Shown here one piece after another: positions 1 through 15,214 of a stretch of DNA of 15,633 nucleotides; the first letter of the stretch is position 1, and the number at the start of each line of letters is the position of its first letter. A program made the position numbers and the translations under genes. Source of the DNA: a virus; UHGV virus genome UHGV-2095518; one strand, 5' to 3'. A model generated the notes under the pieces. That model searched no databases. It saw only the letters and a list, made by a program, of their open reading frames with translations, and was not told the origin of the DNA.

Positions 1-211
1 CACCTCTCGCAGCCTTGCGCTTATCTTCTTTAATCTTGAAATAAAGGTTTGTCAGGTACGTCAGCAGGCCAAATACCAGACTACCCAGCACACCGATTGC
101 AGCCCACTGTGACGGAGTTACTCTATCGAGCAACTGTAAAAACCAGTAGCCAGCACTGCCTGCGGAGGTGCCGTAGGCAATGCCTGTTGAAATTTTGTCC
201 ATGGATTTCAT
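1..211 (-). CDS. S: Class II holin (pinholin), phage 21 S-type; partial, last codon(s) and stop lie beyond the window start
   Basis: Hand translation of the minus strand from ATG at 209-211 gives [70 protein letters not shown], which matches my recollection of the phage 21 S holin. It has the Met1-Lys-Ser-Met4 dual-start arrangement and a GGAGGTGAGG Shine-Dalgarno just upstream. It is not in the ORF track because no stop falls inside the window. Confidence 0.75.
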
Positions 212-462
212 AGCCTCACCTCCGCACGGAACGGATGGCATAGTTATTATGTGTAGGCTTTCAGACACATCAATCAGAGCCTTAATTGATATATATGCTG
301 GAGACGATGCAATATAAAAAGCTCGCCGTAGCGAGCTAATATAATGTATTTCTCTGATATTATGTTTATTTGTATTAGCTCAGACTTGACATCACAGGTT
401 TCGTATATAGAACATCATCAAATCTGTCAGTTTGCTATGAATGAGATATAGTAATTGAAGAG

Positions 463-858
463 CTAACCTCGCATGTCAAAGCCAGATTTCTGAAAATCTC
501 TGTAGACTTCCGGATTGTTGAAGGCCGGAAATTTGGCTTTATGAGCTGCGGACTTTATCGCTTCGCAATAGGCTTTATCACCGTTACTGGTAGATATTTT
601 TAACGCCGTGCCATCCTGAGAGAATTCCATATGCAACCTGCATTTTTTCCCTTTCCAGTTATGCGGCTCATCAAGTTTGGCATTAATTGCAGCTCTGATT
701 CCCCGCGCTTGCGCCCCCCATTCATCCTGATCATCCCAGCGTCCTGAACTGCAACTACCTGTAGCAGTAGTTTTGTGGCAATCTGAAGGGTGTAAAGGTG
801 TGCATCCCGCAACAAAACCGACCCAAAAAGTCAACATAACGATTTTCTTTAATCCCAC
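463..858 (-). CDS. Lipoprotein with a divergent TolA domain III-like mature domain
   Basis: 131-aa ORF with a GTG start preceded by GAGGA. Signal peptide with lipobox VAGC (MGLKKIVMLTFWVGFVAGC). The mature part (IRAAINAKL...GKKCRLHMEFSQDGTALKISTSNGDKAYCEAIKSAAHKAKFPAF..PEVYRDFQ) follows the pattern of the E. coli TolA C-terminal domain, including the conserved Cys pair. Paralogous to the 1009..1437 gene. Confidence 0.6.
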   Translation of the reverse strand: MGLKKIVMLTFWVGFVAGCTPLHPSDCHKTTATGSCSSGRWDDQDEWGAQARGIRAAINAKLDEPHNWKGKKCRLHMEFSQDGTALKISTSNGDKAYCEAIKSAAHKAKFPAFNNPEVYRDFQKSGFDMRG

Positions 859-1008
859 TTCTTGCTCCTCAATCCATTAAAATCTCAGCAATAGTAGTTG
901 TTACGTCCGCCACTGGCTCAGAGCTGACTATCCGCTAAATTTAGCTCAGTGCCGTAGCTGTGTCAGAACAAACCTAAGCCGAAACCGTTTATTACAAAAC
1001 AATAAATA

Positions 1009-1437
1009 TCAGGGTTTAAAATCCAGCACCCCATTTTGAAATACTTTATATACTTCCGGCGAAGGGGGGGCAGGTATATCAGCATTCTTTATCGCATTCA
1101 TCGCTTCACGACATAAATCGAGGTCTCCACTTTCTCTTTTAACCTCCAGTAGAAGGCCATTCGGGGCCATATGCATTCTCAGTGTACACTCTTTTCCTGA
1201 ATACTTACTCGCATCCCCGAACTGTTTTTCGATGGCGCTCTTGATTTGATGGGCATACAGACGGATATCCTCACTAACATCAGAAGTACGTTCAGATGAA
1301 CTCACATACTGTGTCTCTATTGCTTTATCGGAGTAATATGATGTACGGTCATGATAATTTGTCGATACAGCATCAGTGCACCCGATAATAATCCCACTAA
1401 TAATCAACGTAAGAATTGATGCGCTACGAAAACCCAT
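1009..1437 (-). CDS. Lipoprotein carrying a TolA domain III-like C-terminal domain
   Basis: 142-aa ORF with ATG start and GAGGAAAA Shine-Dalgarno. Signal peptide with lipobox-like IIGC. The C-terminal ~85 aa (HQIKSAIEKQFGDASKYSGKECTLRMHMAPNGLLLEVKRESGDLDLCREAMNAIKNADIPAPPSPEVYKVFQNGVLDFKP) closely parallel the TolA C-terminus as I remember it (..GQIKSAIESKFYDASSYAGKTCTLRIKLAPDGMLLDIKPEGGDPALCQAALAAAKLAKIPKPPSQAVYEVFKNAPLDFKP). Confidence 0.7.
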   Translation of the reverse strand: MGFRSASILTLIISGIIIGCTDAVSTNYHDRTSYYSDKAIETQYVSSSERTSDVSEDIRLYAHQIKSAIEKQFGDASKYSGKECTLRMHMAPNGLLLEVKRESGDLDLCREAMNAIKNADIPAPPSPEVYKVFQNGVLDFKP

Positions 1438-1466
1438 TTTTCCTCACATATGTCATATAGTAAAGG

Positions 1467-1496
1467 ATTATATATACCGTTGTTTTGGACGCTCAA
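1467..1496 (-). promoter_or_regulatory. Candidate sigma70 promoter for the 1009..1437 lipoprotein gene
   Basis: On the minus strand TTGAGC (-35) is followed after ~16-18 nt by TATATAAT (-10), about 30-40 nt upstream of the start codon in an AT-rich intergenic region. Confidence 0.3.
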
Positions 1497-2025
1497 ACAG
1501 CGAATCAGATCAAATAAAACGCACATTTGTTAACATTTACACAAAGTCTGCGTGGGATATTCTGAAAGAATATCCATAATGTGGAGAGAATCTATTGAAG
1601 TGCATGGTGCCGGGTGCCTCCCGGTGAACAAAATGTTCGTGATACCTGTCGGCGACAGAAAAGGTTAATGGTATCACCCCACCGCACAGGGGGATTCACC
1701 ATGCAGGAGTTTTCTTAGCAAACTCACTGCGCGCCCGGCAACTCCCAACCACATAAAATGCGGAGTTTGTGGTATTTATGCATATAACTCGCAGGAATTA
1801 TCTTAAAAAACTGATGTCGATCCGGATTAAAAAGAAGCAGGTCATCATCAGATGACTGGAAAAAAGGAAAACAAAAAATACTCATCATACAGTTTTGATT
1901 GCAGGGATGAGCCTGCTATGCACAATATGCAGAATATAAGCAAGATAAAAATATGCAGGCATATTATTTCGGGTTTTGTTATTAACACAACCTTTTTAAT
2001 AATCATTTGGCATACAATAAACCAG

Positions 2026-2055
2026 CCCAAAAAGAACCGCCTAAACAGGCGGTTG
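2026..2055 (-). terminator. Rho-independent terminator-like hairpin
   Basis: Stem AACCGCC / GGCGGTT with a 6-nt loop; on the minus strand it is followed by CTTTTTGGG. Confidence 0.35.
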
Positions 2056-2371
2056 GTCAATACAAAGGATGCTTCGTCTTTATTATAGTAATCTGAGGCG
2101 TCGGGTGTCTTGTATCAGACAACATATTGTCCCGCTAAACAGCGAATTACAAACCACCCTGCAATGATCTCTCATCTCATTTTATATGAGTTGACGACAT
2201 CAGGATAACGCATCATCAGCCCCTGCCAAGAAATATCAAAACTCCCGCCAGCAATGTGTTATCACAATATTGTAAAAAAAACACAGCACCGAAACTATAA
2301 CTGGTCTCTGTTATAATTTGGAGCAGAAAGACCAGTTGCCCAACTAGCAGCATTCTCCCCTGCTTTCCTGA

Positions 2372-2400
2372 CGTAAAAAAACCGCATTAAGCGGTTTTTT
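2372..2400. terminator. Bidirectional rho-independent terminator (tR'-like) just downstream of the Q-like gene
   Basis: AAAAAAACCGC-ATTAA-GCGGTTTTTTT: a GC stem flanked by an A-run on one side and a T-run on the other, about 90 bp past the stop of the 2482..3024 gene. Confidence 0.6.
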
Positions 2401-2481: not shown

Positions 2482-3024
2482 TCAAGCCATTTTCTCAGCA
2501 AATGATTCACGCATGGGAATATATAGGGCATACTCAGCAACAGCTAACCAATTAGCAATCCGTTTTTCGCATGTGCTAAAACACCACTCTGGGTGTGCAT
2601 CATTTAGCAATTCAGCCATTTTGCGCTTAGTCATCCCCCGCCCTTCATAGCGTTGCCGGAGAATGCAAATCAATCCTGGATGCTCTGCCAGCACCTCACT
2701 TATGACTCGATCAATACATAACGCCTCTGCATCAGTACAATGCGCCAGCCAGCTCTTTTGCTTGCCGTTGATCATCTCTCGCAAAAACGCTTCCAGCTCA
2801 GCTTTCTCTATTCCCGCTTTTTTCATTCTGCGCAGGGCTTCATTAATGGCTGTTTTCGTCAGTTTTTTGGATGCCAACAACTGATTGAACATATTCCCTG
2901 ACCTGCCACCGCCAATATACGACCAGCGCCCCCACATACGTAGTTTTCCCTGAATCCAGACACTTTCCAGCGTGGTGAGGCGAAGGTGTTCTCCGCTTTT
3001 TCCTGTATTCGTTGGGTAAATCAT
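2482..3024 (-). CDS. Putative late-gene antiterminator (Q-like)
   Basis: 180-aa ORF whose start overlaps the upstream gene stop by 4 nt. The N-terminal LRMWGRWSY motif resembles the RWGAW motif of small Q antiterminators such as DLP12 QuuD. It sits directly upstream of a strong terminator and, further on, a holin. Confidence 0.5.
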   Translation of the reverse strand: MIYPTNTGKSGEHLRLTTLESVWIQGKLRMWGRWSYIGGGRSGNMFNQLLASKKLTKTAINEALRRMKKAGIEKAELEAFLREMINGKQKSWLAHCTDAEALCIDRVISEVLAEHPGLICILRQRYEGRGMTKRKMAELLNDAHPEWCFSTCEKRIANWLAVAEYALYIPMRESFAEKMA

Positions 3025-3311
3025 AAATGACCTTTCTTTCTCCAGATTTCTTGTGTGCGAAAAACCCCTTCAGCATGCATCAGGCGCAATTCTTCTTTGG
3101 TGTAATCGCTGGTTTTTACCCGCCCGTCGATTAGATCGTGGCATGAGCTACAGGCTATCGCCGCCTGCATATCGTGTGGTTTTGTCGCTGTTCCGCACGT
3201 CCCCGCCAGCCTGTAATGCGCCAGCACAGAGGTTTCGGGATTGTGATTGCAGTAGCCAGGGATTCTGATCTGGCACATCTGGCCTTTAGCCGCTTTACGT
3301 AAATTCACCAT
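3021..3311 (-). CDS. YbcO-like (DUF1364) Cys-rich putative nuclease
   Basis: 96-aa protein MVNLRKAAKGQMCQIRIPGYCNHNPETSVLAHYRLAGTCGTATKPHDMQAAIACSSCHD... matches my recollection of E. coli DLP12 YbcO in length, Cys spacing and several motifs (LRKAA, CQ.RIPG.CN.NPETSVLAH.RL.G.CGT.TKP, IACS.CHD). Translationally coupled to both neighbours. Confidence 0.6.
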   Translation of the reverse strand: MVNLRKAAKGQMCQIRIPGYCNHNPETSVLAHYRLAGTCGTATKPHDMQAAIACSSCHDLIDGRVKTSDYTKEELRLMHAEGVFRTQEIWRKKGHL

Positions 3312-3910
3312 TACGCAAACTCCAGTAGTTGTGCGGCCACATTTTCAACTTCCTCCTGAGAGGAGAATTTACGGAACAGAATCCAGTTCCACAGCACATT
3401 CAGTACAGATTTATAAACCTGCTGAAACTCGACTTCGTCCATATTCGCAAAAGCGATGGATTTTGCCCGACGCCCACGGCTACCGTCCGGATAAATATGC
3501 TCGGTGTAAAATCCGGCCTGAATGGTTACCCACTCGCGGAAAGCCTCAAACGACTTTAGCAACGCCGTATCCCGGGTTCTACGAGTCGCAACGGTGTTAA
3601 GGTATTGCTCTGCGGCATCACTCAGGGCTGGCGTGTGTTCCCGACCAACTGATTCGCACAGGTAATCAACGAAACCAGACAGCAGTTCTCGTTCGCGAGG
3701 CGTGATCGCCCCACCGACCGGAGTCCAGTAATCGAATCCCAGTTGCAGGAGTTTGAAAAAACGCTTGTGGAATGCGTAGTTACGCACACGCTTAAAGTCT
3801 GCGTGTATCCACTCACCTATTTTGATTTGATGCAGAAAATCGCAACTCTCCGGCGTCGCCGGGAGAAGTAAACCAGAAGAAGTTTGTTTGACCAGTTGTA
3901 TATGCGCCAT
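3311..3910 (-). CDS. Lambdoid nin-region protein (DUF1367-like), function unknown
   Basis: 199-aa ORF lying immediately upstream of the YbcO-like and Q-like genes, overlapping the YbcO-like start by 1 nt. The call rests on position and size; the family assignment is from memory. Confidence 0.45.
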   Translation of the reverse strand: MAHIQLVKQTSSGLLLPATPESCDFLHQIKIGEWIHADFKRVRNYAFHKRFFKLLQLGFDYWTPVGGAITPRERELLSGFVDYLCESVGREHTPALSDAAEQYLNTVATRRTRDTALLKSFEAFREWVTIQAGFYTEHIYPDGSRGRRAKSIAFANMDEVEFQQVYKSVLNVLWNWILFRKFSSQEEVENVAAQLLEFA

Positions 3911-4361
3911 TTCTCAATCTCTCGATGGCGCAGTGCAGCAGATGCCAGTTGTTCAGGCTGACGTATAAAGTATAAATAAACTGGTTCCAGTGTAAAGCCC
4001 CCACCTTAATGGAATAAAAACCAAACAACAGATTGCTGGGATACAAACAACGCTTATTATTAAAAGCGGTTAAACAAATTAAATTTTAATGTTATGCAAA
4101 TTTGTCAGATCACCATAATATCTCATTTGAAAACCGCTGAAATAACAGCCCTATCAGGGTTAATCATATTAAGGTGAGTAAATATGGAAAACAACAAATC
4201 TGTACATTACGTTCCTTTTTTATCTGTAATACTTTTTGTTTTATGCTGTGCGTGGGCATTATTTTTATAAAAATATTTACAGATGAAGTAAACCCGCCAA
4301 TCAGGTTAACTGTGGCTGCGTTGAGGATGCATAATACATCAGAGGTTGCGGGGATTTCTCC

Positions 4362-5701
4362 CATAAGCGCTAACTTAAGGGTTGTGGTATTACGCCTGAT
4401 ATGATTTAACGTGCCGATGAATTACTCTCACGATAACTGGTCAGCAATTCTGGCCCATATTGGTAAGCCCGAAGAACTGGATACTTCGGCACGTAATGCC
4501 GGGGCTCTAACCCGCCGCCGCGAAATTCGTGATGCTGCAACTCTGCTACGTCTGGGGCTGGCTTACGGCCCCGGGGGGATGTCATTACGTGAAGTCACTG
4601 CATGGGCTCAGCTCCATGACGTTGCAACATTATCTGACGTGGCTCTCCTGAAGCGGCTGCGGAATGCCGCCGACTGGTTTGGCATACTTGCCGCACAAAC
4701 ACTTGCTGTACGCGCCGCAGTTACGGGTTGTACAAGCGGAAAGAGATTGCGTCTTGTCGATGGAACAGCAATCAGTGCGCCCGGGGGCGGCAGCGCTGAA
4801 TGGCGACTACATATGGGATATGATCCTCATACCTGTCAGTTCACTGATTTTGAGCTAACCGACAGCAGAGACGCTGAACGGCTGGACCGATTTGCGCAAA
4901 CGGCAGACGAGATACGCATTGCTGACCGGGGATTCGGTTCGCGTCCCGAATGTATCCGCTCACTTGCTTTTGGAGAAGCTGATTATATCGTCCGGGTTCA
5001 CTGGCGAGGATTGCGCTGGTTAACTGCAGAAGGAATGCGCTTTGACATGATGGGTTTTCTGCGCGGGCTGGATTGCGGTAAGAACGGTGAAACCACTGTA
5101 ATGATAGGCAATTCAGGTAATAAAAAAGCCGGAGCTCCCTTTCCGGCACGTCTCATTGCCGTATCACTTCCTCCCGAAAAAGCATTAATCAGTAAAACCC
5201 GACTGCTCAGCGAGAATCGTCGAAAAGGACGAGTAGTTCAGGCGGAAACGCTGGAAGCAGCGGGCCATGTGCTATTGCTAACATCATTACCGGAAGATGA
5301 ATATTCAGCAGAGCAAGTGGCTGATTGTTACCGTCTGCGATGGCAAATTGAACTGGCTTTTAAGCGGCTCAAAAGTTTGCTGCACCTGGATGCTTTGCGT
5401 GCAAAGGAACCTGAACTCGCGAAAGCGTGGATATTTGCTAATCTACTCGCCGCATTTTTAATTGACGACATAATCCAGCCATCGCTGGATTTCCCCCCCA
5501 GAAGTGCCGGATCCGAAAAGAAGAACTAACTCGTTGTGGAGAATAACAAAAATGGTCATCTGGAGCTTACAGGTGGCCATTCGTGGGACAGTATCCCTGA
5601 CAGCCTACAAAACGCAATTGAAGAACGCGAGGCATCGTCTTAACGAGGCACCGAGGCGTCGCATTCTTCAGATGGTTCAACCCTTAAGTTAGCGCTTATG
5701 G
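4362..5701 (+). mobile_element. IS186-like insertion sequence (IS4 family)
   Basis: Terminal inverted repeats CATAAGCGCTAACTTAAGGGTTG at 4362-4384 and its reverse complement ending at 5701 enclose a single transposase gene. The flanking 12 bp are also inverted-symmetric (GGGGATTTCTCC on the left, GGAGAGATCCCC on the right), so the exact ends are uncertain by about 12 bp. Confidence 0.8.
4417..5529 (+). CDS. insL: IS186 transposase
   Basis: The ORF translates MNYSHDNWSAILAHIGKPEELDTSARNAGALTRRREIRDAATLLRLGLAY..., recognised as the IS186 transposase. The ORF track opens at a GTG at 4411; the ATG at 4417 is the more likely start. Confidence 0.85.
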   Translation: MNYSHDNWSAILAHIGKPEELDTSARNAGALTRRREIRDAATLLRLGLAYGPGGMSLREVTAWAQLHDVATLSDVALLKRLRNAADWFGILAAQTLAVRAAVTGCTSGKRLRLVDGTAISAPGGGSAEWRLHMGYDPHTCQFTDFELTDSRDAERLDRFAQTADEIRIADRGFGSRPECIRSLAFGEADYIVRVHWRGLRWLTAEGMRFDMMGFLRGLDCGKNGETTVMIGNSGNKKAGAPFPARLIAVSLPPEKALISKTRLLSENRRKGRVVQAETLEAAGHVLLLTSLPEDEYSAEQVADCYRLRWQIELAFKRLKSLLHLDALRAKEPELAKAWIFANLLAAFLIDDIIQPSLDFPPRSAGSEKKN

Positions 5702-5758
5702 GAGAGATCCCCGCCACTCTTCGTGTGTCAGGTATCCTCAATGCACCCTTTCCTCTCC

Positions 5759-5784
5759 AAATAAAAAAGCTCCCGAAGGAGCTT
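5759..5784 (-). terminator. Rho-independent terminator ending the virion-gene operon
   Basis: AGCTCC-CGAA-GGAGCT hairpin; on the minus strand it is followed by TTTTTTATTTGG, about 20 bp past the stop of the 5805..6314 gene. Confidence 0.55.
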
Positions 5785-5804
5785 TAAAATACAAGGGATG
5801 ACTC

Positions 5805-6314
5805 TTAATCCCAATCAATCCAGTTGTAGACGATACGAAGTGACGGGCGCACAGCAGCAGTCACATCTTCGGTACTAAAGTCGATTGCATCACTGTAGAT
5901 TTTGCAGTCCAACATTTCAATTGTTGTAGCAGCTTTTGTCACAGCGTTAACCCCGGAAGATTTGGATTCAGGGGTAGCAGCCATCGTGATATCAACATAG
6001 TCTTTCTCTGCAATGCGATCCTTAATGAACTGAAGAATATCGCCTTCGATAGTCTCCACGCACTGGACCTGGATTTCCCCAGAGTTTCGAATTGGACCGT
6101 GCTGGTTGAACTTCACACCATTCGGACCATAGTCCTCCACATCCTCGCGGGTCATTTCAGGAATTTGCGATGTGCGAACCGGTACGCTGATATCTTCATG
6201 GCCTGCAAAAGTGAGCTGGAATTCAGAAGATACCAGTCGTTCGCCTTTGGCCGCGTTGGCAGTATAGCGGCCCTTAATAAATTTACGGTTTCCCTTAGTG
6301 TTATTGTGCCCCAT
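5805..6314 (-). CDS. Hypothetical virion protein, last gene of the structural operon (possible tail tube or tail-associated)
   Basis: 169-aa ORF with an AAAAGGA Shine-Dalgarno, 11 bp after the upstream gene, in an operon with a sheath-like gene. No family recognised by eye. Confidence 0.4.
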   Translation of the reverse strand: MGHNNTKGNRKFIKGRYTANAAKGERLVSSEFQLTFAGHEDISVPVRTSQIPEMTREDVEDYGPNGVKFNQHGPIRNSGEIQVQCVETIEGDILQFIKDRIAEKDYVDITMAATPESKSSGVNAVTKAATTIEMLDCKIYSDAIDFSTEDVTAAVRPSLRIVYNWIDWD

Positions 6315-6325
6315 ATAAAATCCTT

Positions 6326-6907
6326 TTACTGGAACGCCCGAACAATATCGGAGCTGTTATATATCGAAGAACCGGTCAACTGGAGGTTGACGGTGTTTTT
6401 CAGGAAATGCCCATTACTATCCCTGGGGGCATCGAGATCGAAACTAAGGTCCTGGATAGCGACATCAATGATGTTGATCCGGCGACCAATGTTTAGCGTC
6501 ACACGCTCCGGGATTCGACCACCAATACTAGCGTCTTTAAGTTCCGGGCTAATCATTGCTGACAACGCGGCGATAGCACCTGAAACTTCCGTATATGGGT
6601 TAAACAAAGCAATGAAAGTTACTGGCAGCGTGAAAGTCGGCGGTGTCCCCCCTTCCCAAACCATTAAGCTGTTCCAACGGGCAACTGACGTTGTTTCAGT
6701 ACCAACCTGCGCAAAACCACTGAAGGCACCAGCAACAGAACCCATAGACATACCGGTAAACGGCGCTTCCCAATTCTGGGCCAGATTCATTGCCGCCCCC
6801 TGGCTGATATATCCGGTAACCTGGTACTGAGAGTTCGTTAAAGTAACTTTCAGAAATGGCGATACACCGTCAGCCTGGCTGTAAACCCCAAAAGGTATAG
6901 GTGCCAT
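6326..6907 (-). CDS. Hypothetical virion protein (size fits a tail tube protein)
   Basis: 193-aa ORF in the same operon, Gly/Ser/Thr-rich. The function is inferred only from context. Confidence 0.4.
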   Translation of the reverse strand: MAPIPFGVYSQADGVSPFLKVTLTNSQYQVTGYISQGAAMNLAQNWEAPFTGMSMGSVAGAFSGFAQVGTETTSVARWNSLMVWEGGTPPTFTLPVTFIALFNPYTEVSGAIAALSAMISPELKDASIGGRIPERVTLNIGRRINIIDVAIQDLSFDLDAPRDSNGHFLKNTVNLQLTGSSIYNSSDIVRAFQ

Positions 6908-6942
6908 TCAAGTTAAAGGCCGGAGTTCTCCGGCATCCTCCT

Positions 6943-7758
6943 TTAGCCGAGGCGCTTACGGCGCAGTTTCATTGACTTTTTGCGGGCCAGTTTTGCCGCG
7001 CCGGTCTGGGCTTTACGACGCGCTTTTTTCAGCGCCGATTTTTGAGCCGCAGTCAGACGTTTTTTACGCAGACGTTTACGGATGAGCTTGATCTCACCGT
7101 TACGAACAACCTTCTTAAATGCTTCAGTCAGCATTTCATCAGAAGTGCCAGCAACAACAAACGCCGCTTCCAGTTCGTCGCGGTCGTCGCTATCCAAACC
7201 AGCGATAGCGGAACCAACATCAGCAGCTGCGTCGTCGTCTTCATCGTCGGTCAATGCTTCGATCAGGTCATCATCTACACCGCATGCTGCGAGGAAGTCA
7301 GCAACATTTGCCCATGCTTCGTTATAGGCATCGTCCTGTTCTTCTGTAACTTCGGTATCGTCGTCGTCAGAGATACCAGCGATAGCCTGAACGAAACCAT
7401 CAAGGGAGTCGAAAGTCAGATCACCGCTATCAGCCCAGGCGAAAACGGCATCGGCCGCATTACTCAACGCATTCTGCATAGCACTTCGATTTGCAGCTTC
7501 CAGAATCATCTTGTGCGCCTGTTCGACGGTCCATTCTTTACCTTCTTTTCCTTCCAGGATTTGCTCAGGTGCCGGGTCAGATTGAACGTTCTCGTTAATC
7601 TGTGCCGCCGGTTCCGGATTATTATTAATCACCGGTTCGGTTGGCGGTTGGGCACTTACACGGGCAGATTCCATCAACTGCACCGGATCAGCGTTCAAAG
7701 CGAAACGGGACAGTCCATTCCCCAAAAATGCCCCGGATTGAAAAAAGTTTTTGCTCAT
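6943..7758 (-). CDS. Acidic protein with a poly-basic C-terminal tail, function unknown
   Basis: 271-aa ORF with an AAGGGA Shine-Dalgarno, starting 10 bp after the sheath-like gene. The centre is extremely D/E-rich (..SDDDDTEVTEEQDD.., ..TDDEDDDAAAD.., ..DSDDRDELE..) and the last ~50 aa are K/R-rich (KLIRKRLRKKRLTAAQKSALKKARRKAQTGAAKLARKKSMKLRRKRLG). Confidence 0.5.
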   Translation of the reverse strand: MSKNFFQSGAFLGNGLSRFALNADPVQLMESARVSAQPPTEPVINNNPEPAAQINENVQSDPAPEQILEGKEGKEWTVEQAHKMILEAANRSAMQNALSNAADAVFAWADSGDLTFDSLDGFVQAIAGISDDDDTEVTEEQDDAYNEAWANVADFLAACGVDDDLIEALTDDEDDDAAADVGSAIAGLDSDDRDELEAAFVVAGTSDEMLTEAFKKVVRNGEIKLIRKRLRKKRLTAAQKSALKKARRKAQTGAAKLARKKSMKLRRKRLG

Positions 7759-7767
7759 TGTATTCCC

Positions 7768-9357
7768 TTACTTAATAAGCAGCGGTACGCCATGGATACG
7801 ACGGGCTACGCCAGTCGGGCAGCAGGCCCAGACTACTTCCCATTTATCGAATTCCGCCTGCGTAACTTTCAGCACATACGGTTCTGTACCGTCAGCATCA
7901 GGATCACGAGGAGCCACCAGAGCGCCGGAGGCGACAAAGCGATCTAAAAGTTTGGTCATCCCTTTAGTCAGGCCAGCCGCAGTAATACCGTCCGGGCTAT
8001 GCTTCATCTGTCGGGCTAACTGGACAAAGAAACGGCTGATTGCATTCATCAGGGATGGGACGTGCTGGAAGTGCAGATAGTTATCCTGCGTGCAGCAAGT
8101 TAAAGCATCGTCGATGATCATCTGGCCAGAGGTGCCAACAGATACTTTATTGAGACGGCCCTTGACCATTGCTTCTTCGTCCGGGGTATCTTCCGGATAC
8201 AGCGGTTGAATTGACGCACGAGCAATGACGGCACGTTCTTCACCAGCCGGTGAGTAATGCCAACCGCCGACATCAGAGTTTTTCTTGACGCCACGAGCTT
8301 TCGCCGCATACGCCGCGCCAGACAGACCGAAGACCACACGGGATTGGGTCCATTTGTCTTTGCAGGAGAACGGGAAGTGATAGACAGCACAGCTTACATA
8401 ATCGGTACCAAGTAAACCGGTATCTTCAACAGCAGAGATCGCTTCCGTGTACGTCAATGTCGGTTTGACATCAAAGAAGCCATCAATCAGGCGATCTGCA
8501 CAGATTTTACCTAATGCGGTGATAGCCGCATTGTCATAGCAGCCCAAGCCAAGAACAGCGGTGTACATGTACGGCGCATTGTTCAGCACTTTCACCGCAC
8601 GCAGGTACGCAGCGGTTGAGATTTTCGACTGATCACCGTTGGTACCACCAGTGAACGCCAACGATTTTTTGTTTGTTACTTTCGCTGTAGAAATCAGATC
8701 TTCATTAACAACCGCGCGCAGATATTTAGAACGGGCTTCCAGAGCCGTAGGCAGATAACACAAGCGGCCCATGTCATCTTTCGCTTCTTCCACCAAAGAC
8801 ACAGTGTGTGTCTCCAGGGTCGTTACCACACCGAGCGAAGTCGTCTGGGTTAGTTTTAAGAGGAAGCGTTCATTACCCGCGCTGTCCGCTGTTGCCGTTT
8901 CGATGGTTAACTCACGGGTAGGTGAAATACACGGATCACCATCATCAACGTAGATAGCAAAGGCTTCGCCGCTATCAAGTTCAATTTCAGAACCATATGG
9001 CAACGCAGTGTAAGCCGGTTCGCCTGATTCATCGAACATAATAATCGGGAACTTCGCATCATCCGGAACAGCACGGACAACATAACCAGACGTTTGCTGA
9101 ATAGCTTCGTACACATGGCGAATTGGTTCGAACTGTGAGCCGGAAGACGGCTTCAGCGGTTCGCCGAGAACATCTTCGTAATTGGACTCAGTAACCGCAA
9201 GAACAGTAAACGGCTTGCCACGCGCAAATACGCCAATACCAGCCCACAAGCTGCTATTTAATGCAACACCGGTAGATAACGTCGCATCGGCATTGATCGG
9301 GCTAACCGCGACGCCGGATGCATTACCTAATGACTGTTGAATTGAATATTGAGACAT
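7768..9357 (-). CDS. Contractile-tail sheath protein (putative)
   Basis: 529-aa ORF with an AGGGAAAG Shine-Dalgarno. It contains a GGWHYSPAGEERA segment resembling the W.SPAG..RG motif I recall from T4 gp18 and P2 FI, and has a sheath-like C-terminal region; the size and operon context also fit. Confidence 0.55.
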   Translation of the reverse strand: MSQYSIQQSLGNASGVAVSPINADATLSTGVALNSSLWAGIGVFARGKPFTVLAVTESNYEDVLGEPLKPSSGSQFEPIRHVYEAIQQTSGYVVRAVPDDAKFPIIMFDESGEPAYTALPYGSEIELDSGEAFAIYVDDGDPCISPTRELTIETATADSAGNERFLLKLTQTTSLGVVTTLETHTVSLVEEAKDDMGRLCYLPTALEARSKYLRAVVNEDLISTAKVTNKKSLAFTGGTNGDQSKISTAAYLRAVKVLNNAPYMYTAVLGLGCYDNAAITALGKICADRLIDGFFDVKPTLTYTEAISAVEDTGLLGTDYVSCAVYHFPFSCKDKWTQSRVVFGLSGAAYAAKARGVKKNSDVGGWHYSPAGEERAVIARASIQPLYPEDTPDEEAMVKGRLNKVSVGTSGQMIIDDALTCCTQDNYLHFQHVPSLMNAISRFFVQLARQMKHSPDGITAAGLTKGMTKLLDRFVASGALVAPRDPDADGTEPYVLKVTQAEFDKWEVVWACCPTGVARRIHGVPLLIK

Positions 9358-9417
9358 AACTTTCCCTGTTATGCGCCCCGCACGGGGGCGCTATGTTAAA
9401 CGGAGAACTTCCCCTGA

Positions 9418-10125
9418 TTACTCAGAGTCACCGGCATCAATCGTGTCGCCGCTTATAAAGTTAAGCCCGCCTTTTTTGGCCATTGTCAGCGTTACACGAG
9501 TGAAGTAATCAGCGCCGTTGCGTGGGTGCATATCGTTGATAGCCGAACCCCACAGTGTGGTACGGTTGACCAGCGCCGGAGTGGTCGGATGCTGGAACGG
9601 GATAGCCGGGACAGCATCACCAGTCACGAAGCCTGCTTTACCCGGATTTTCATCACGGACGTAGCACAGCACATCCATCGAGCTGAACTGAATGTTCTCT
9701 GTCGTTAAGTTCTTACAAATACCAGCAGGTACTTCGTACACTTTTACGTTACCGAACAGGGTACCGATGTAGTGAACATACGGAGTCTGGATATAGTCTT
9801 CGGCTGGCTGGAAGAAATCCTTCGGCAACTGTTTGAAGAAAGATGCTGCATCAGCACCAGCAAACATCCCCATCGCACCAGAAGATTTAACGCGCTCAAT
9901 AATGTCGCGATATACAGTCTGGAATTTTCCACGAATGATGGTTGCCCATACATCAAAGGACTGGTTAACCGGCAGAGCGATGTCAAAGGTGTCGGTCGCA
10001 AGAGTGCGCCAGATCATGATGCGAAGACGCAGCATATCCTGTTCATGAGACAGGTATTCCTTCAGGGTGCGGAACTGTAGGGAACCCAGGTCCAGACCAA
10101 ATTCACGCTGTGCTTCATACGCCGC
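9418..10125 (-). CDS. C-terminal part of a capsid-like ORF, in frame with and immediately downstream of the TAG at 10126-10128
   Basis: The reading frame stays open from the TAG through AAYEAQREFGLDLGSLQFRTLKEYLSHEQDMLRLR... to the stop at 9418. The first ATG (10033-10035) has no convincing Shine-Dalgarno, so this looks like a continuation of the upstream frame rather than an independent gene. Confidence 0.45.
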   Translation of the reverse strand, partial: AAYEAQREFGLDLGSLQFRTLKEYLSHEQDMLRLRIMIWRTLATDTFDIALPVNQSFDVWATIIRGKFQTVYRDIIERVKSSGAMGMFAGADAASFFKQLPKDFFQPAEDYIQTPYVHYIGTLFGNVKVYEVPAGICKNLTTENIQFSSMDVLCYVRDENPGKAGFVTGDAVPAIPFQHPTTPALVNRTTLWGSAINDMHPRNGADYFTRVTLTMAKKGGLNFISGDTIDAGDSE

Positions 10126-11124
10126 CTATACCGTGTGCTCAGCCGCGATAACGAACTGACTTGGGAACAGGGTGTATTTCTTCATTTCGTGGTTGATCAG
10201 CGGGATCAGCTCAGGAGCGGCTTCAATATTGATTTCCGTCTCAATTGCGATCTCAGTGCCTTTATCCGGCGCTTTGGAGAACGACAGGGCAATCTGACCA
10301 ATGTTGTAGTTCAGAGAGCAGGTAACAGTGATTTGCTCACCAGCAGCATTAGTAAACGAGTGAAGTAGGCTGCCGGAACCGTTATCAACAACAGACTTAA
10401 TACGGTTAACGTAGATGTTAGTGCGACCTTTTCGGATTGGTACATTCTGGCCTTCGAAGTCTTCCATCTTGAAGGTTGCGGTTTTGCTGGTGCCATCGGA
10501 GCTTGCCACCAGCACATAGCGGCGGCGTAACTGGCTGTACACACCGACGGATTGCATGTCCAGAACATCACCAGCAGCATAAGAACCAAAAGAGGAACCT
10601 GCCACGTTAAAGACTTCATAGATGTCGGACTGGTCACGCGTAACCGGAATGAAGGTACACGCATCAGCGGTAGCTGCCCCCAACTGAACAGGCAGGATCA
10701 TCGCGAGGAATAAAGGCAGACGCATAACACCGTCAGAAACGCTCATCATCTCTGCTGCGACGGATTCCAGCATCGCTTTATTAGTGGCATCCATGCTATT
10801 GCGGGTGGACTCAATCAGGCAGTTTTCCAGCGTCTGGTGGCAGGAGGCCAGAATTTCCGGACGCGGCATAGATTTATGTGCTGCGGCGTAGTCAGCCAGT
10901 GCACTTGCCCACGCGGTAGCAATTTGAGCGGTGGCATTATCAGAGATACCCGCAAAAATTGGGTCTTTACGTGCAGCTTCAAGGATAGATGCGGCACGCG
11001 CGGCATCATCTTTGATGAATTGGTTATCAGTACCGAACTGTGCTGTACTTGCCCAGCCAAGAACGGCTTTAGAGCGTTTTGCGATATCTGCAATACGATT
11101 CTGGTATTCGCGTAAGTTACTCAA
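10126..11124 (-). CDS. N-terminal part of a putative major capsid protein precursor (about 568 aa if the TAG at 10126-10128 is read through)
   Basis: Probable TTG start at 11122-11124, 6 nt after AAGGAAG; the ORF track opens at an upstream TTG at 11145. The frame ends in TAG after ...AAEHTV. It is the first gene of the virion operon, immediately downstream of parB/parS, which is where I recall P1 placing its major head gene; the combined size of about 62 kDa also fits. Confidence 0.45.
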   Translation of the reverse strand: MSNLREYQNRIADIAKRSKAVLGWASTAQFGTDNQFIKDDAARAASILEAARKDPIFAGISDNATAQIATAWASALADYAAAHKSMPRPEILASCHQTLENCLIESTRNSMDATNKAMLESVAAEMMSVSDGVMRLPLFLAMILPVQLGAATADACTFIPVTRDQSDIYEVFNVAGSSFGSYAAGDVLDMQSVGVYSQLRRRYVLVASSDGTSKTATFKMEDFEGQNVPIRKGRTNIYVNRIKSVVDNGSGSLLHSFTNAAGEQITVTCSLNYNIGQIALSFSKAPDKGTEIAIETEINIEAAPELIPLINHEMKKYTLFPSQFVIAAEHTV

Positions 11125-11145
11125 GTTACTCTTCCTTAAACACAA

Positions 11146-11388
11146 GGCACTTGTGTGAATCCCTTTTCGGAAGAGATTTTATTGAAAGTCACTTGTTGAC
11201 TTTCTCGCGAAAAGTAATTTTTTAAATTTTTTGTGCGGGGAAGTGGACGGTGAATGCAGGCGTTAAATTGTGGGAATTTCAGTCTGAAACCCCCCTAAAA
11301 AACACATGCAAATCACAAGGTTAGCAATGAAATCGGTGCGGGACATTTTAGGAAGGGGAGGGGCTAACACCACCTCCCACCAGCGGGA
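11146..11388. promoter_or_regulatory. parS-like partition site region, probably also carrying the promoter of the virion operon
   Basis: Intergenic segment directly downstream of parB, the position of parS in P1-family plasmids. It contains an 8-5-8 palindrome GAAAGTCA-CTTGT-TGACTTTC (11184-11204), a TGAAATCGGTG motif (11327-11337) resembling the P1 box A/box B arrangement, TGAAT/ATTCA heptamer-like repeats and an AT-rich tract. Confidence 0.45.
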
Positions 11389-12354
11389 TTATTCCCCAGC
11401 AGACATTTTCCCAATGATTTTTTTTATTGCTTCGTCAATTTCAGTTTGCACTTCAGACGGGAGTCTGGAGAACTCGTAGGCGACAACCCGTTTTTTCGGA
11501 TCGGACTTCTTTCGAGCATATTGGCGACGGTCAGAGAAGTCTCGCAGCTTCTCAACCACCACAGATTTAACCGGCGCGGGCTTCAGGCTTTTGCTTTCCG
11601 CTTTGAAGATAGCCAGTATCTTCGCTTTATCCTCTTTCGCGCCCTCAGTCTCTGCAATTCGCTCGCGCACCGTATCAACCAGATCTCCAATCGGTACGTT
11701 TTTGGCGTTAGCATCTTCGGAGATCTGGAGCAGCAACTGGTAATCAGGCAGGGCGAGATCGCTGGCAACAGGGAAGACAGCAATCATCTCATCCGGCACC
11801 GCCGCAGCCTGGAAAGCTCGCGTCACTTTAGCCTTTGAGATGTTCTCAGCTCGGGCGATCTCTTCTTTGGTCATATTCTTGCCGTACATAACCTCGAAGC
11901 GTTTACCCAGCTCGCGCAGAGTGTGTTCGCGGGCTGTCTGGATATCAATGGCCAGCTGGCGGGCATCCGCCAGGCTGATCTCATCTTTCGTCACCAGAAT
12001 CTCAAATTTCGTTTCATTGAAGATACACGCAGCGCGGCGACGTGATCCGTCCAATACCTCAATGCGCTCCCCAACCATACGACCGATAGCCGGGAAGAAC
12101 TGTTGCAATTTAATGGTGCGGGAAATATCGCTTACCGACTCAGGGGTGAGCAGAGACTGATCGCGGCCGTTAACTGCCGGGTCAACGAACGTGCGCGACT
12201 CAATCTCACCACTCAGCACAACGGTAAGCAAAAATTTAGCCTGGCGACCAGATTTTAGGGTAAAGGTTTTGGTGCCTTCACTGCCTTCAAGCATGCGAGC
12301 AAACTCGGAGCTATTCTTGCCCAGCACTCGTCCACGGGAAACTATTTTTTTCAT
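11389..12354 (-). CDS. parB: ParB centromere-binding partition protein (type Ia)
   Basis: 321-aa ORF with the ParB GSRRRAA motif (LDGSRRRAACIF) and an HTH region, translationally coupled to parA (4-nt overlap). The overall pattern is P1/P7 ParB-like but clearly divergent from the P1 ParB I recall. Confidence 0.85.
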   Translation of the reverse strand: MKKIVSRGRVLGKNSSEFARMLEGSEGTKTFTLKSGRQAKFLLTVVLSGEIESRTFVDPAVNGRDQSLLTPESVSDISRTIKLQQFFPAIGRMVGERIEVLDGSRRRAACIFNETKFEILVTKDEISLADARQLAIDIQTAREHTLRELGKRFEVMYGKNMTKEEIARAENISKAKVTRAFQAAAVPDEMIAVFPVASDLALPDYQLLLQISEDANAKNVPIGDLVDTVRERIAETEGAKEDKAKILAIFKAESKSLKPAPVKSVVVEKLRDFSDRRQYARKKSDPKKRVVAYEFSRLPSEVQTEIDEAIKKIIGKMSAGE

Positions 12355-13562
12355 GCCGCCTCACCCCTAACAAACTCAATTCGATCAAACACAGCCTTAG
12401 TGAAACGCTCGGCCTCGGTTCGTGCCTTCTTCAGCGCCTCTGCACTGCCTGGATACGATTGCGGGTTGGCACTGATTACGGTGTCGAAAGACTCGCCGCA
12501 TCGCTCAAAGCCATCCAGACGAGGCAGAGAAGAGTCCAGAATGTTGCTGGCGTAAACCTCACGCGCAAGGCTGTGTGATGTCTCGTGATCGCGCTTGCCG
12601 GTCATCTTCGACATAAAACCAATGCTGGCGCTCAAACGCGGTTCTACGCCTTCCTCCTCCAGTTGCTCCAGCATTTCTGGCAGACGGGTGAGATATTTCA
12701 GTGTTGAGTGGAAGTCAACCTGGGCTGGTGGGGTAGGGGTAAGCAGCAAATCGCTGGCCGCCAGACCGTTGAGCAGGAACGGATCCAGGTGTGGACCGGT
12801 ATCAATAAAGATAAAGTCATAATCATCCGCAACACGATCAATGATATTGCGTCGAAGGATTTCGTACTGATTTTGTCCGGGAAGATGCTCTTCAACCAGC
12901 TCTTTCCATTGGCTGGCAACAAAGCCATCGTCGATAGAGGCTGGAATCACGTCTACGCCAGGAACGATGGTCGGACGAATCACCTCTTTGCGTAGCGTCT
13001 CCGCGTCCAGGTCGTTCAGCATCGCCTGCGCGGCGGTTTCCAGGATGGAACCAATACTGTGAGTATGGTCGAGGAACATTGTGCTGGATGCCTGAGGGTC
13101 AAGGTCAATTACCAGAATGCGCAGATCGTGACGCAGTAAATCCTGATGCACACGCAGAGCGTGCGCCAACGTTACTGTGGAAACCGTTTTGGATACGCCA
13201 CCCTTCAGGTTTACGACAAAAATAACGTAAGGCGATTTGTGAATGTCGCGATATTTGGGGATCTTACGGTGGGCATAGATATCAATGACGTTCTGGATGG
13301 TCAGCGCGTACTGTTCAACGTTACCGACCTGTTTCTTGTTGAACTGGTACCCATCATCTTCCATCTCTTTGATGGCCTGCTCCACAATGCGGCGGCTCAG
13401 CTTCGGCAACTTTGCCACAGCGTTACGAGTGAACGTCTGATAATACTCGGTCTGATTGAACTCTTTACGCTGATCTTCAATATCCTGACTCATGGCCTTA
13501 AGTAATGCGCTTGCACGAAGAGCTATGGTGCCGACACCGCCGTAATCGCGTTTCATCATCAT
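12351..13562 (-). CDS. parA: ParA partition ATPase (type Ia, with N-terminal DNA-binding extension)
   Basis: 403-aa ORF with the deviant Walker A motif NLKGGVSKTVSTV and a conserved C-terminal region (RLDGFERCGESFDTVISANP..AVFDRIEF) as in P1 ParA. The ~100-aa N-terminal extension is typical of autoregulatory type Ia ParA. Confidence 0.9.
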   Translation of the reverse strand: MMMKRDYGGVGTIALRASALLKAMSQDIEDQRKEFNQTEYYQTFTRNAVAKLPKLSRRIVEQAIKEMEDDGYQFNKKQVGNVEQYALTIQNVIDIYAHRKIPKYRDIHKSPYVIFVVNLKGGVSKTVSTVTLAHALRVHQDLLRHDLRILVIDLDPQASSTMFLDHTHSIGSILETAAQAMLNDLDAETLRKEVIRPTIVPGVDVIPASIDDGFVASQWKELVEEHLPGQNQYEILRRNIIDRVADDYDFIFIDTGPHLDPFLLNGLAASDLLLTPTPPAQVDFHSTLKYLTRLPEMLEQLEEEGVEPRLSASIGFMSKMTGKRDHETSHSLAREVYASNILDSSLPRLDGFERCGESFDTVISANPQSYPGSAEALKKARTEAERFTKAVFDRIEFVRGEAA

Positions 13563-13665
13563 CTCCTTATCATTTAGTATGAGTGAATTGTACGTTTGAT
13601 TCTGCTACGTGCAACTTTTTTTGATTCGTGCGCCAATTATTGCACGTAAAGAAATGGCGATGAGG
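13563..13665 (-). promoter_or_regulatory. parAB promoter/operator region
   Basis: Immediately upstream of parA: a large inverted repeat CTACGTGCAA (13604-13613) ... TTGCACGTAA (13639-13648) around an AT-rich centre, as expected for the ParA autoregulatory operator. Confidence 0.5.
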
Positions 13666-13950
13666 TTATTAGATGTGTGCTGGAGGGATGATGCAGGACC
13701 AGAATGTGCGATAGAGGGAAGTCGCATTGAATTATGTGCTGTGGAGGGATCGCTGGTATCAAATATGTGTGCTGGAGGGAAAGATAGAAGATTAGATGTG
13801 CGCTGGAGGGAAACTTGGATGGTTAGATGTGTGCTGGAGGGAATGTCTGGGCAAACTGCGTGGCGCAACCCTCCAGCGCACACCAAAAACAGGAAAATGG
13901 GCAGGCATTCCCGGCAGCGCACATTTTTCAAATGCAGCTGCCCTCCAGCA
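13666..13950. repeat. incA iteron array (about nine 19-bp RepA-binding repeats in both orientations)
   Basis: Repeats of GATGTGTGCTGGAGGGA and variants at about 13666, 13698, 13726, 13758, 13789 and 13820 in one orientation, and CCCTCCAGCGCACAC-type copies at about 13861, 13900 and 13935 in the other, directly downstream of repA. This is the P1 incA copy-control arrangement. Confidence 0.85.
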
Positions 13951-13955
13951 CACAC

Positions 13956-14816: not shown

Positions 14817-14871
14817 ATTGCTTTTTCCGAATTATGTGGATAGTTTTTATCAGTGATGATAACTACCCTGG

Positions 14872-14977
14872 CTTTCCCGTCAGCACACATCCTATATCCC
14901 GCCAGCACACATTAGCAACCCGTCAGCACACATTTTTTTCCCTCCAGCGCACATCGTTTTCCCTCCAGCACACATCG
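14872..14977. repeat. incC iterons (five 19-bp repeats) within oriR, overlapping the repA promoter
   Basis: Five direct copies of ..CC(C/G)(T/C)CAGC(A/G)CACAT.. at about 14872, 14897, 14918, 14938 and 14959, immediately upstream of the repA start. Confidence 0.85.
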
Positions 14978-14989
14978 CGAAAGGCTTCT

Positions 14990-15100
14990 AAGCCAGACGG
15001 GACGCGGCCTACGACGATCAGGGATCTATATGGATCTAATTGGGATCTGTATGGACCTGATTATTGGATCTATCCAGTGGATAATGTGGATAAGTGAAAA
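14990..15100. promoter_or_regulatory. oriR core: GATC-containing heptamer repeats and tandem DnaA boxes
   Basis: Five GATC sites (15016, 15023, 15033, 15044, 15067) within repeated GGATCT motifs, followed by DnaA boxes AGTGGATAA (15076-15084) and TGTGGATAA (15085-15093). A further DnaA-box-like TGTGGATAG lies at 14835-14843 on the repA side. Confidence 0.7.
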
Positions 15101-15121
15101 AACCGGCCAACGTAGCCGGTT
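15093..15121 (-). terminator. Rho-independent terminator shielding oriR from incoming minus-strand transcription
   Basis: AACCGGC-CAACGTA-GCCGGTT hairpin; on the minus strand it is followed by TTTTCAC. Confidence 0.4.
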
Positions 15122-15135
15122 GGAAGGGAGTCGTA

Positions 15136-15214
15136 TTATTCTACGCTTTCGATGAGAAGACCATGTTCATAGCATTTAAGCTCATCGCCCTCGTACAGGA
15201 ATTGGTATCCAATT
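15136..15214 (-). pseudogene. 3' remnant of a gene truncated by the IS3-family insertion
   Basis: The minus-strand frame reads ...[25 protein letters not shown] then TAA (15136-15138), followed by the terminator hairpin. The frame is cut off at 15214/15215 where the IS end begins. Confidence 0.3.

Follow-up and report, generated by a model that had tools for sequence, protein, structure and literature searches.

The locus and its two genes

The UHGV virus genome UHGV-2095518, a stretch of 15,633 nucleotides that was analysed as a whole and is referred to here as the window, carries near its left end two neighbouring genes, orfA and orfB, each of which encodes a stand-alone copy of domain III of the TolA protein (TolAIII) behind a lipoprotein signal peptide. 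A first-pass annotation made from the sequence letters had pointed to two open reading frames (ORFs) at 463..858 and 1009..1437; the ORF call finds both there, and the present analysis adds two corrections, namely that they lie on the minus strand and that orfB begins with a GTG codon (Table 1). The genes are not part of a tol-pal operon but are sited between a Q-like antiterminator gene and a holin gene of a prophage.

Table 1. Positions of the genes, protein segments and candidate signals around orfA and orfB.
Feature	Position in the window	Strand	Details
orfA	1009..1437	(-)	142 amino acids, ATG start, from ORF call; predicted lipoprotein with TolAIII module
orfA Shine-Dalgarno	1441..1445	(-)	GAGGA upstream of the ATG; direct sequence reading
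orfA signal peptide and lipobox	1378..1437	(-)	MGFRSASILTLIISGIIIGC then TD; Cys20, +2 Thr, +3 Asp
orfA tether	1279..1377	(-)	Residues 21-53 (33 amino acids), rich in Ser/Thr/Tyr/Asp, predicted disordered
orfA TolAIII domain	1012..1278	(-)	Residues 54-142; QIKSAIE helix, Cys pair, C-terminal LDFKP strand
orfB	463..858	(-)	131 amino acids, GTG start at 858, from ORF call; predicted lipoprotein with divergent TolAIII module
orfB Shine-Dalgarno	865..870	(-)	GAGGAG, 6 nucleotides 5' of the GTG; direct sequence reading
orfB signal peptide and lipobox	802..858	(-)	MGLKKIVMLTFWVGFVAGC then TP; Cys19, +2 Thr
orfB tether	730..801	(-)	Residues 20-43 (24 amino acids), low-confidence model; carries the family motif
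orfB TolAIII domain	466..729	(-)	Residues 44-131; Cys pair, PEVY, C-terminal strand GFDMRG
DUF1133 Q-like antiterminator gene	2482..3024	(-)	Pfam DUF1133 356 bits, Phage_antitermQ 26.1 bits; upstream edge of the slot
EssD-type holin gene start	2..211	(-)	From translation; essD at the same place in NZ_CP115361; downstream edge of the slot
Intrinsic terminator	320..337	(-)	Between orfB stop and holin; AGCUCGC-UACG-GCGAGC plus U-run
A-run/U-run hairpin after the Q-like gene	2375-2400	(-)	-19.7 kcal/mol, z score -5.8
Promoter-like site, then hairpin and U-run	2035..2111	(-)	AAGACA-18-TATAAT, from scan; fold -14 kcal/mol, z score -2.0
Candidate sigma-70-like promoter	1467..1496	(-)	TTGAGC-18-TATAAT, ~30 nucleotides upstream of orfA; 10/12 consensus; weak
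Small RNA STnc100	1548-1734	(-)	Rfam RF02076, 86.6 bits (gathering 47), full length; ~110 nucleotides upstream of orfA

Sequence and fold of the domains

That orfA and orfB encode TolAIII modules is fully supported by sequence and by predicted structure. Both products match the Pfam family PF06519 (TolA_C; gathering cut-off 25 bits), orfA with 82.6 bits (E 2.4e-23) and orfB with 54.6 bits (E 1.3e-14). A phmmer search against all sequences in the PDB matched the domain III of E. coli TolA only (1S62, 3QDP, 2X9A, 1TOL) and aligned it gaplessly, residues 55-142 of orfA to TolA 334-421 (E 5e-28) and residues 51-129 of orfB to TolA 341-419 (E 5e-9). Identity to TolA 334-421 amounts to 52 of 88 positions in orfA (59%) and 27 of 88 in orfB (31%), and the two products share only 25 of 79 positions with each other, so that they are as far apart as orfB is from TolA. 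The pair Cys363/Cys388 of TolA is present in both and is invariant or nearly so across both families.

AlphaFold2 models both C-terminal domains at a predicted local distance difference test (pLDDT) score of ~90, with values below 50 at residues 1-53 of orfA and 1-39 of orfB; the C-terminal strand is predicted at residues 135-140 and 126-130, respectively. In a Foldseek comparison with the PDB, the top match of orfA is 2X9A_B (TM score 0.94, root-mean-square deviation 0.6 A, 60% identity) and that of orfB is 3QDP (TM score 0.92, 1.1 A, 31% identity), and among the top structural matches stands 2X9A, which is titled as the complex of IF1 g3p with TolA. The C-terminal domains of TonB lie far behind, with E values of 5e-3 or worse as against 1e-8. 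orfA also scores marginally on the Pfam family TonB_2 (23.6 bits, cut-off 22); for orfB Pfam gives TolA only. The first-pass annotation had recognised the mature domains as TolAIII by eye, had noted the conserved Cys pair and the contrast between a copy close to TolA and a divergent one, and had suggested a structure prediction against known TolAIII structures; that comparison has now been run, and Pfam, phmmer and Foldseek agree with the assignment throughout.

Neither product is a full TolA: matches to the NCBIfam TolA models are confined to their C-terminal ~80-100 positions (positions ~265-387 only), and domains I and II would find no space. The full-length equivalog NF007065, with a cut-off of 213 bits, is reached neither by orfA (107.8) nor by orfB (53.7); orfA does exceed the score cut-off of TIGR02794 (75.6 vs 59.45), but over the last 98 positions of that model only. 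A word-indexed search for homologues of orfA returned close relatives and no true TolA.

Lipoprotein signals and tethers

Ahead of the domains, both products have a charged n-region, a hydrophobic h-region and a lipobox Cys located between residues 15 and 35, which are the features of a PROSITE PS51257-type rule. The same pattern is found in 24 of the 29 full-length cluster representatives of the orfA family and in 114 of the 119 of the orfB family, and the lipobox Cys is nearly invariant in the family alignment, so that the lipoprotein signal peptides read from the two ORFs in the first-pass annotation prove to be conserved in both families. The residue at +2 is Thr, Ala or Ser in both families and never Asp. 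By the +2 sorting rule of E. coli, the lack of Asp predicts anchoring in the outer membrane; the products of orfA and orfB are thus probably lipidated and would be sorted to that membrane.

The segments that join lipobox and domain differ between the two families. In the orfB family the tether follows the motif C-x-PLHPS-x-C-HKTTA-x-GSC-SSGRWDDQDEWG, which includes two extra cysteines and is still present in homologues of ~50% identity. A conserved C-x8-C loop and SGRWDDQDEWG are features of this tether, and neither the extra Cys-loop nor this motif occurs in TolA. A likeness of SSGRWDDQDEWG to the TolB boxes of colicins (DGSGW...W) comes down to a pattern of four residues and was set aside without being used as evidence.

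Annotation, intactness and selection

The way in which these genes have been recorded in databases obscures them. In the RefSeq genome NZ_CP115361, where 18164-18970 corresponds to 463-1437 of the window, the start of orfB is placed seven codons downstream of the GTG; this is probably wrong, since the charged n-region of the signal peptide is thereby lost and since plasmid homologues have an ATG at the position of the GTG codon. orfA is flagged there by PGAP as a pseudogene of only 261 nucleotides ("tolA, incomplete, missing N-terminus"), which contradicts its signal peptide, its Shine-Dalgarno sequence and its substitution pattern; the label is an artefact that arises when a stand-alone domain is judged against a model of full-length TolA. 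Several database entries are truncated, and the names that are in use ("cell envelope integrity protein TolA", "tolA family protein", "colicin import membrane protein") are all automatic. Whatever the function turns out to be, the annotation should be corrected: orfA is intact and no tolA pseudogene, and "cell envelope integrity protein TolA" is unfit as a name.

Pairwise ratios of nonsynonymous to synonymous substitution rates (dN/dS) for orfB range from 0.08 to 0.15 across prophage copies, plasmid copies and chromosomal copies of Enterobacter and Serratia, and for orfA from 0.26 to 0.39 between variants. orfA evolves faster outside its domain, with values of 0.39-0.77 in signal peptide and tether and of 0.10-0.35 in the domain. 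As judged from these substitution patterns, both are functional genes; orfB represents a family of its own, on which purifying selection is strong (dN/dS ~0.1).

A cassette in the Q-to-holin slot of a lambdoid prophage

Over its left 4.3 kb the window spans the stretch from Q to the lysis genes of a Rac-like lambdoid prophage of E. coli. In the direction of transcription, the minus strand there holds DUF1367, YbcO, the DUF1133 Q-like gene, a strong terminator, a promoter-like site with a hairpin, STnc100, orfA, orfB, a second terminator and the holin gene. In the complete genome NZ_CP115361, genes for the lysozyme RrrD and then for a lysis protein come after that of the holin. For the terminator that separates orfB from the holin, the folding energy is -15.3 kcal/mol (z score -4.6), a value that none of 200 shuffled sequences reached, and its placement right before the holin suggests transcription that must not enter the lysis genes. 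The GC content is 0.38-0.46 over 200-1600, where the cassette lies, and 0.48-0.52 over 2600-4000, where the nin-region genes lie; together with the strong terminator, this lower value is in keeping with a unit whose transcription does not depend on that of the late lysis genes.

Among the IMG/VR loci that were found with orfB, orfA, orfB and the holin occur together in 80 of 80, the DUF1133 Q-like gene lies upstream in 43 of 80, and the spacing (orfA, 154 nucleotides, orfB, 253 nucleotides, holin) is kept in 76-78 of 80. Distant variants of orfA, at 91% and 66% identity, stand alone in the same slot behind other types of Q and in one case together with nanS-p; the slot can thus hold orfA and orfB, orfA alone, or orfA and nanS-p in different prophages. 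By its slot, its own terminator and its GC content the cassette has the anatomy of a moron, as far as sequence can tell. Known morons of the lambdoid Q-to-holin slot (stx, nanS-p, and nmpC in DLP12) share with it the location, the lower GC, a terminator of their own and a variable presence; the cargo of orfA and orfB is different, as it contains no toxin or enzyme domain.

Distribution among prophages, plasmids and chromosomes

The two-gene cassette is found at an identity of at least 99% in 771 of 5,426 complete E. coli genomes (~14%); of the 50,697 phage genomes on deposit, only mEp460_ev081 has it. The viral structure library BFVD contains no match to a TolAIII-like fold at E <= 1e-3; this and the single phage record show that phage isolates sequenced so far hardly ever have the fold, whose main home is in prophages. 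orfA was found in E. coli and Shigella only (a scan of species-representative genomes yielded a single genome with it, that of Shigella flexneri), and every member of the orfA family examined lies in the Q-to-holin slot of a lambdoid prophage.

The orfB type reaches further. A homologue of 88% identity is present on ~600 plasmid records, and on the three plasmids that were inspected (typed IncK2/Z, MOBP, MPF_I) the gene comes immediately after nikA-nikB and is convergent with trbABC; on a pO157-like plasmid a relative is located near toxB. Enterobacter carries homologues of 84-86% identity as single chromosomal genes at a conserved locus between housekeeping-type genes, and in Serratia marcescens a chromosomal homologue is placed between nrdG and a pair of genes for GmrSD (PF03235) and a HEPN protein (8001-10736). 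The GmrSD/HEPN neighbourhood has itself the look of a small defence locus.

A third type of TolAIII lipoprotein comprises 144 amino acids (WP_001567367.1), has the lipobox ITAC followed by SN, and shares 35% identity with the domain of orfB. It occurs on ~310 plasmid records (tblastn), mostly of Klebsiella and also of Enterobacter; on the one plasmid inspected, NZ_CP024040 of Klebsiella pneumoniae (IncFII/FIB, MPF_F), the gene adjoins one for a secreted or periplasmic protein with a thioredoxin fold (CxxC; region 4217-5246). Taken together, relatives are found on ~900 plasmid records, pO157-like plasmids included. An exhaustive HMMER search with orfB among 1.8 billion cluster representatives gave 130 hits, 67 of which are 110-170 residues long; because 49 of these 67 carry a lipobox, stand-alone TolAIII lipoproteins appear to form a broad family. 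The first-pass annotation had spoken of mobile-element lipoproteins, a description that suits the prophage and plasmid copies and is too narrow for the orfB type, which is also found as an ordinary chromosomal gene in Enterobacter and Serratia.

Conservation of the ligand-contact surfaces

TolA domain III is a classic entry point into E. coli for group A colicins and for filamentous phages of the Ff, If1 and CTXphi types. Strand addition, the mode by which several of its ligands bind, is largely driven by the backbone. At the C-terminal beta3 strand of TolAIII the TolB N-terminus, the N1 domain of g3p and colicin N are bound in this way, while colicin A uses beta2 (residues 375-380; PMC4339652). 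In the set of helix positions that contact g3p, orfA is identical to TolA at 10 of 14 and orfB at 3 of 14; in the beta3 strand the counts are 5 of 7 for orfA (GVLDFKP vs APLDFKP in TolA) and 1 of 7 for orfB. The C-terminal strand of orfA ends in the same LDFKP as TolA, that of orfB in FDMRG, and the colicin A box of orfA is altered conservatively (LLEVKR vs LLDIKP). Judged by these residues, orfA has largely kept the TolA surfaces for g3p, colicin N and the TolB N-terminus.

A tethered decoy as the proposed function

The observation of lipid-anchored TolAIII modules is solid, and what can be said about their function is a well-founded and easily testable hypothesis. The reading that we favour, tentatively and with somewhat less than even confidence, is that orfA and orfB act as an outer-membrane-tethered decoy of TolA against Tol-dependent invaders. 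The cassette would have entered the lambdoid (Rac-like) prophage in one piece, between Q antiterminator and holin, and we infer that it is expressed in lysogens. Its products would be exported, lipidated at the lipobox Cys and delivered to the outer membrane, from whose inner face the folded TolAIII module would hang into the periplasm on a disordered tether of ~25-35 residues. As domains I and II of TolA are lacking, this module should be unable to couple to the TolQR motor; it would bind what the tip of TolA binds, yet it could not pull. Because such an uncoupled, tethered tip would bind without pulling, competitive capture of TolAIII ligands can be proposed as the core activity, and this part of the reading we regard as rather probable.

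Incoming group A colicins and filamentous-phage g3p would have their TolA-binding segments caught by the decoy before these reach energised TolA, and the same may hold for the N-termini of TolB that colicins have activated. Import would then stall, and the lysogen or plasmid host would become tolerant. That protection against Tol-dependent invaders is the benefit for which the genes have been selected is a more cautious proposition than capture itself, and one to which we give a little less than an even chance. Within such a scheme orfA would serve as a close mimic of E. coli TolA, and orfB would represent an older, separately evolving family, which may have a different range of ligands.

New circumstantial evidence favours the decoy: orfA largely keeps the ligand surfaces, the cassette has its own terminator, and relatives ride on plasmids typed as conjugative (MPF_I and MPF_F). 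The TolAIII identity by sequence and fold, the conserved lipobox without Asp at +2, the disordered tether, the purifying selection, the frequency of the cassette in E. coli genomes, its lower GC and the tolerance reported for exported TolAIII also speak for it. Among the filamentous phages that depend on TolA, If1 uses I-type pili as its receptor and Ff uses F-type pili, and the presence of three independent types of TolAIII lipoprotein on conjugative plasmids of the I type or F type is the most telling of the new observations for this function. We speculate, with more reserve than for the locus itself, that TolAIII lipoproteins may be widespread and unrecognised co-receptor decoys by which prophages and conjugative plasmids counter filamentous phages and group A colicins, that plasmids would in this way offset the vulnerability to phages that their own pili create, and that the tandem of orfA and orfB would broaden the range of ligands. 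As for the interpretation put forward in the first-pass annotation, its structural half (a TolAIII module with a lipoprotein signal) has been established by Pfam, PDB, fold and lipobox, and its functional half, a decoy or a perturbation of Tol-Pal, is still argued from these features.

Several points weigh against a protective decoy. orfA and orfB lie inside the late operon, so their expression could be mainly late; the candidate promoter in front of orfA has an altered -10 in the 91% variant, and the whole region is different in the 66% variant. An excess of periplasmic TolAIII reportedly makes cells leaky and sensitive to detergents, and a decoy would therefore carry a cost that selection must tolerate. 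Since most contact side chains differ in orfB, its ligand may not be a TolA ligand at all, and a defensive role is not a given either, since Enterobacter and Serratia carry its homologues as ordinary chromosomal genes. The PADLOC models of defence systems, finally, match neither gene.

Alternative functions

The main rival to the decoy, which we nevertheless consider unlikely, is a weakening of Tol-Pal in the service of the phage itself. As late genes transcribed from the Q-modified promoter, orfA and orfB would supply TolAIII modules that titrate the TolB N-terminus, so that energised TolA no longer strips TolB from Pal and the tethering of the outer membrane to the cell wall weakens just ahead of the action of holin, endolysin and spanin; rupture of the outer membrane would thereby become easier, or more vesicles would be released. 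The position of the genes immediately upstream of the holin within the late operon speaks for this, as does the restriction of all examined members of the orfA family to prophages and to the Q-to-holin slot, and overproduction of periplasmic TolAIII reportedly causes leakage. Energised TolA pulls TolB and thereby frees Pal (PMC8928145), and orfA keeps the beta3 strand by which the TolB N-terminus is bound (PMC4339652; PMC8928145). This reading is at odds with the strong terminator between orfB and the holin and with a lysis cassette that is already complete (holin, lysozyme, lysis protein). It also fits poorly with the genes of the orfB type and the third type, which live on plasmids and chromosomes, where lysis plays no part, and with the slot itself, which commonly carries cargo unrelated to lysis, such as nanS-p.

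Somewhat less likely again is that the modules, and orfB above all, have a different ligand and act as a strand-addition clamp on another envelope protein, for example on a TonB-box-like segment of an outer-membrane receptor. They would then block a receptor for phages or bacteriocins in the manner of Cor or Llp, or fulfil a housekeeping role in the envelope. At 31% identity to TolA, most ligand-contact positions of orfB have changed, its family has an additional Cys-loop and the SGRWDDQDEWG motif, which TolA lacks, and the type persists as a stable chromosomal gene in Enterobacter and Serratia; the breadth of the family (49 of 67 short cluster representatives with a lipobox) and the marginal TonB_2 score of orfA (23.6 bits, cut-off 22) point in the same direction. 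On the other side, TolAIII leads the structural neighbours by a wide margin over TonB (E 1e-8 against 5e-3 or worse), Pfam assigns orfB to TolA alone, and no candidate for the other ligand can be named.

An improbable third option is that of a positive helper of the envelope, in which the tethered domain would hold TolB or Pal-associated partners near the outer membrane, for instance under the stress exerted by a pilus or type IV secretion system, and would act as a fitness factor. The location on I-complex plasmids directly after the relaxase gene and beside the trb transfer genes is consistent with this idea, as are the neighbouring gene for a periplasmic thioredoxin-fold protein on the inspected Klebsiella plasmid and the existence of chromosomal copies; however, a TolA tip uncoupled from its motor has no known stabilising activity, and the free domain reportedly failed to complement a tolA null mutant and harmed the wild type in the 1993 work of Levengood-Freyermuth.

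The view that orfA and orfB are decaying, functionless fragments of a captured host tolA, which the PGAP flag of a missing N-terminus and the truncated database entries might suggest, is hardly credible in the face of two intact ORFs with Shine-Dalgarno sequences, an acquired and conserved lipoprotein signal that tolA does not have, dN/dS values well below 1, and a constant spacing up to the holin in 76-78 of 80 IMG/VR loci.

Comparison with known systems

Full-text literature searches found no characterisation of proteins of the orfA or orfB type, and neither a major review of Tol-Pal nor a 2025 evolutionary survey of TolA and TonB mentions prophage or plasmid copies or paralogues. PHROG 5772 holds both proteins under the label "unknown function", and in Pfam and PADLOC they belong neither to the families of exclusion lipoproteins (Cor, Llp, TraT, Bor) nor to catalogued defence systems. 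These results accord with the earlier remark that no characterised phage system of this kind was known: the sequences are catalogued, but unnamed and unstudied, and a tethered co-receptor decoy, if it exists, would be a new variant within the exclusion lipoproteins and morons.

With domain III of TolA itself (residues ~325-421; 1S62, 1TOL, 2X9A, 3QDP/3QDR) the two products share the fold, the Cys pair and the C-terminal strand. Unlike TolA, they have neither the transmembrane domain I nor the helical domain II and hence no link to the TolQR motor; they begin instead with a lipoprotein signal followed by a short disordered tether, from which anchoring in the opposite (outer) membrane is predicted, and their genes lie in a prophage whereas that of TolA lies in the tol-pal operon.

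The closest functional precedent comes from the laboratory. Levengood-Freyermuth, Click and Webster reported (J Bacteriol, 1993) that wild-type cells which export soluble TolA domain III to the periplasm tolerate the colicins E1, E2, E3 and A, but not the TonB-dependent colicin D. The free periplasmic domain reportedly made cells leaky, did not complement a tolA null mutation and was harmful in the wild type, and Wan and Baneyx in 1998 are likewise said to have observed periplasmic leakage when soluble TolA domain III was sent to the periplasm. Such an exported domain is also a motor-uncoupled tip in the periplasm, and its tolerance and leakage are the phenotypes that would be predicted for orfA and orfB. 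The difference is that the laboratory construct was overproduced and free-floating, whereas orfA and orfB are natural, diverged, widespread, under selection and predicted to be lipid-tethered.

In the exclusion exerted by Ff phages, g3p made in the infected cell occupies TolA. The same interaction between g3p and TolAIII would be targeted by orfA and orfB, with filamentous phages and group A colicins blocked in both cases; Ff g3p blocks the co-receptor of the host, and the proposed decoy would do the reverse and, being itself a co-receptor copy, block the ligand of the invader. Cor (phi80, N15, HK022), Llp (T5) and TraT (F) resemble the products of orfA and orfB in being small outer-membrane lipoproteins of temperate phages or conjugative plasmids, and a role in blocking entry is proposed for the latter as well. 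They inactivate an outer-membrane receptor (FhuA, OmpA), whereas orfA and orfB would mimic a periplasmic co-receptor, and judged by Pfam (TolA and TonB_2 only) and PADLOC (no hit) there is no sequence relationship between them.

If the decoy holds true, it would reveal a new route by which mobile elements protect their hosts, namely co-receptor mimicry instead of the masking of surface receptors. With the cassette in ~14% of complete E. coli genomes, sensitivity to colicins and filamentous phages would become better predictable from genome sequence. Antimicrobial applications of colicins or phages would be affected as well, and the proteins would offer natural dominant-negative probes for research on Tol-Pal.

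Regulatory elements and the remainder of the window

The candidate promoter in front of orfA should be read with the result of the consensus scan in mind, which returned 11 sites of this grade where 7.1 were expected in shuffled sequences. Further upstream, the promoter-like site with its hairpin lies ~270 nucleotides beyond the hairpin that follows the Q-like gene, and could be the late promoter with its early terminator, through which Q would act.

A transfer RNA or other RNA gene was considered as a reason for the long gap between the Q-like gene and orfA; no transfer RNA was found, and STnc100 is the sole match in Rfam. STnc100 is described as a prophage-encoded small RNA related to PasD (preprint 10.64898/2026.05.13.724894). 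The similarity to mEp460_ev081 (99.8%) ends at ~1628 of the window, inside the STnc100 match, which suggests a boundary of mosaic recombination within the small RNA region.

From the IS421 transposase gene (4411..5529, plus strand) onwards, the window (~4359-15547) is 99.9% identical to the backbone of the E. coli plasmid NZ_CP100935 and contains repA, a partition gene for an AAA-ATPase and parB, with prophage on the left of IS421. The window therefore looks like a prophage-plasmid junction mediated by IS421, or is possibly an assembly join. In another genome the same IS421 insertion is found after the DUF1367 gene, but there prophage genes follow.

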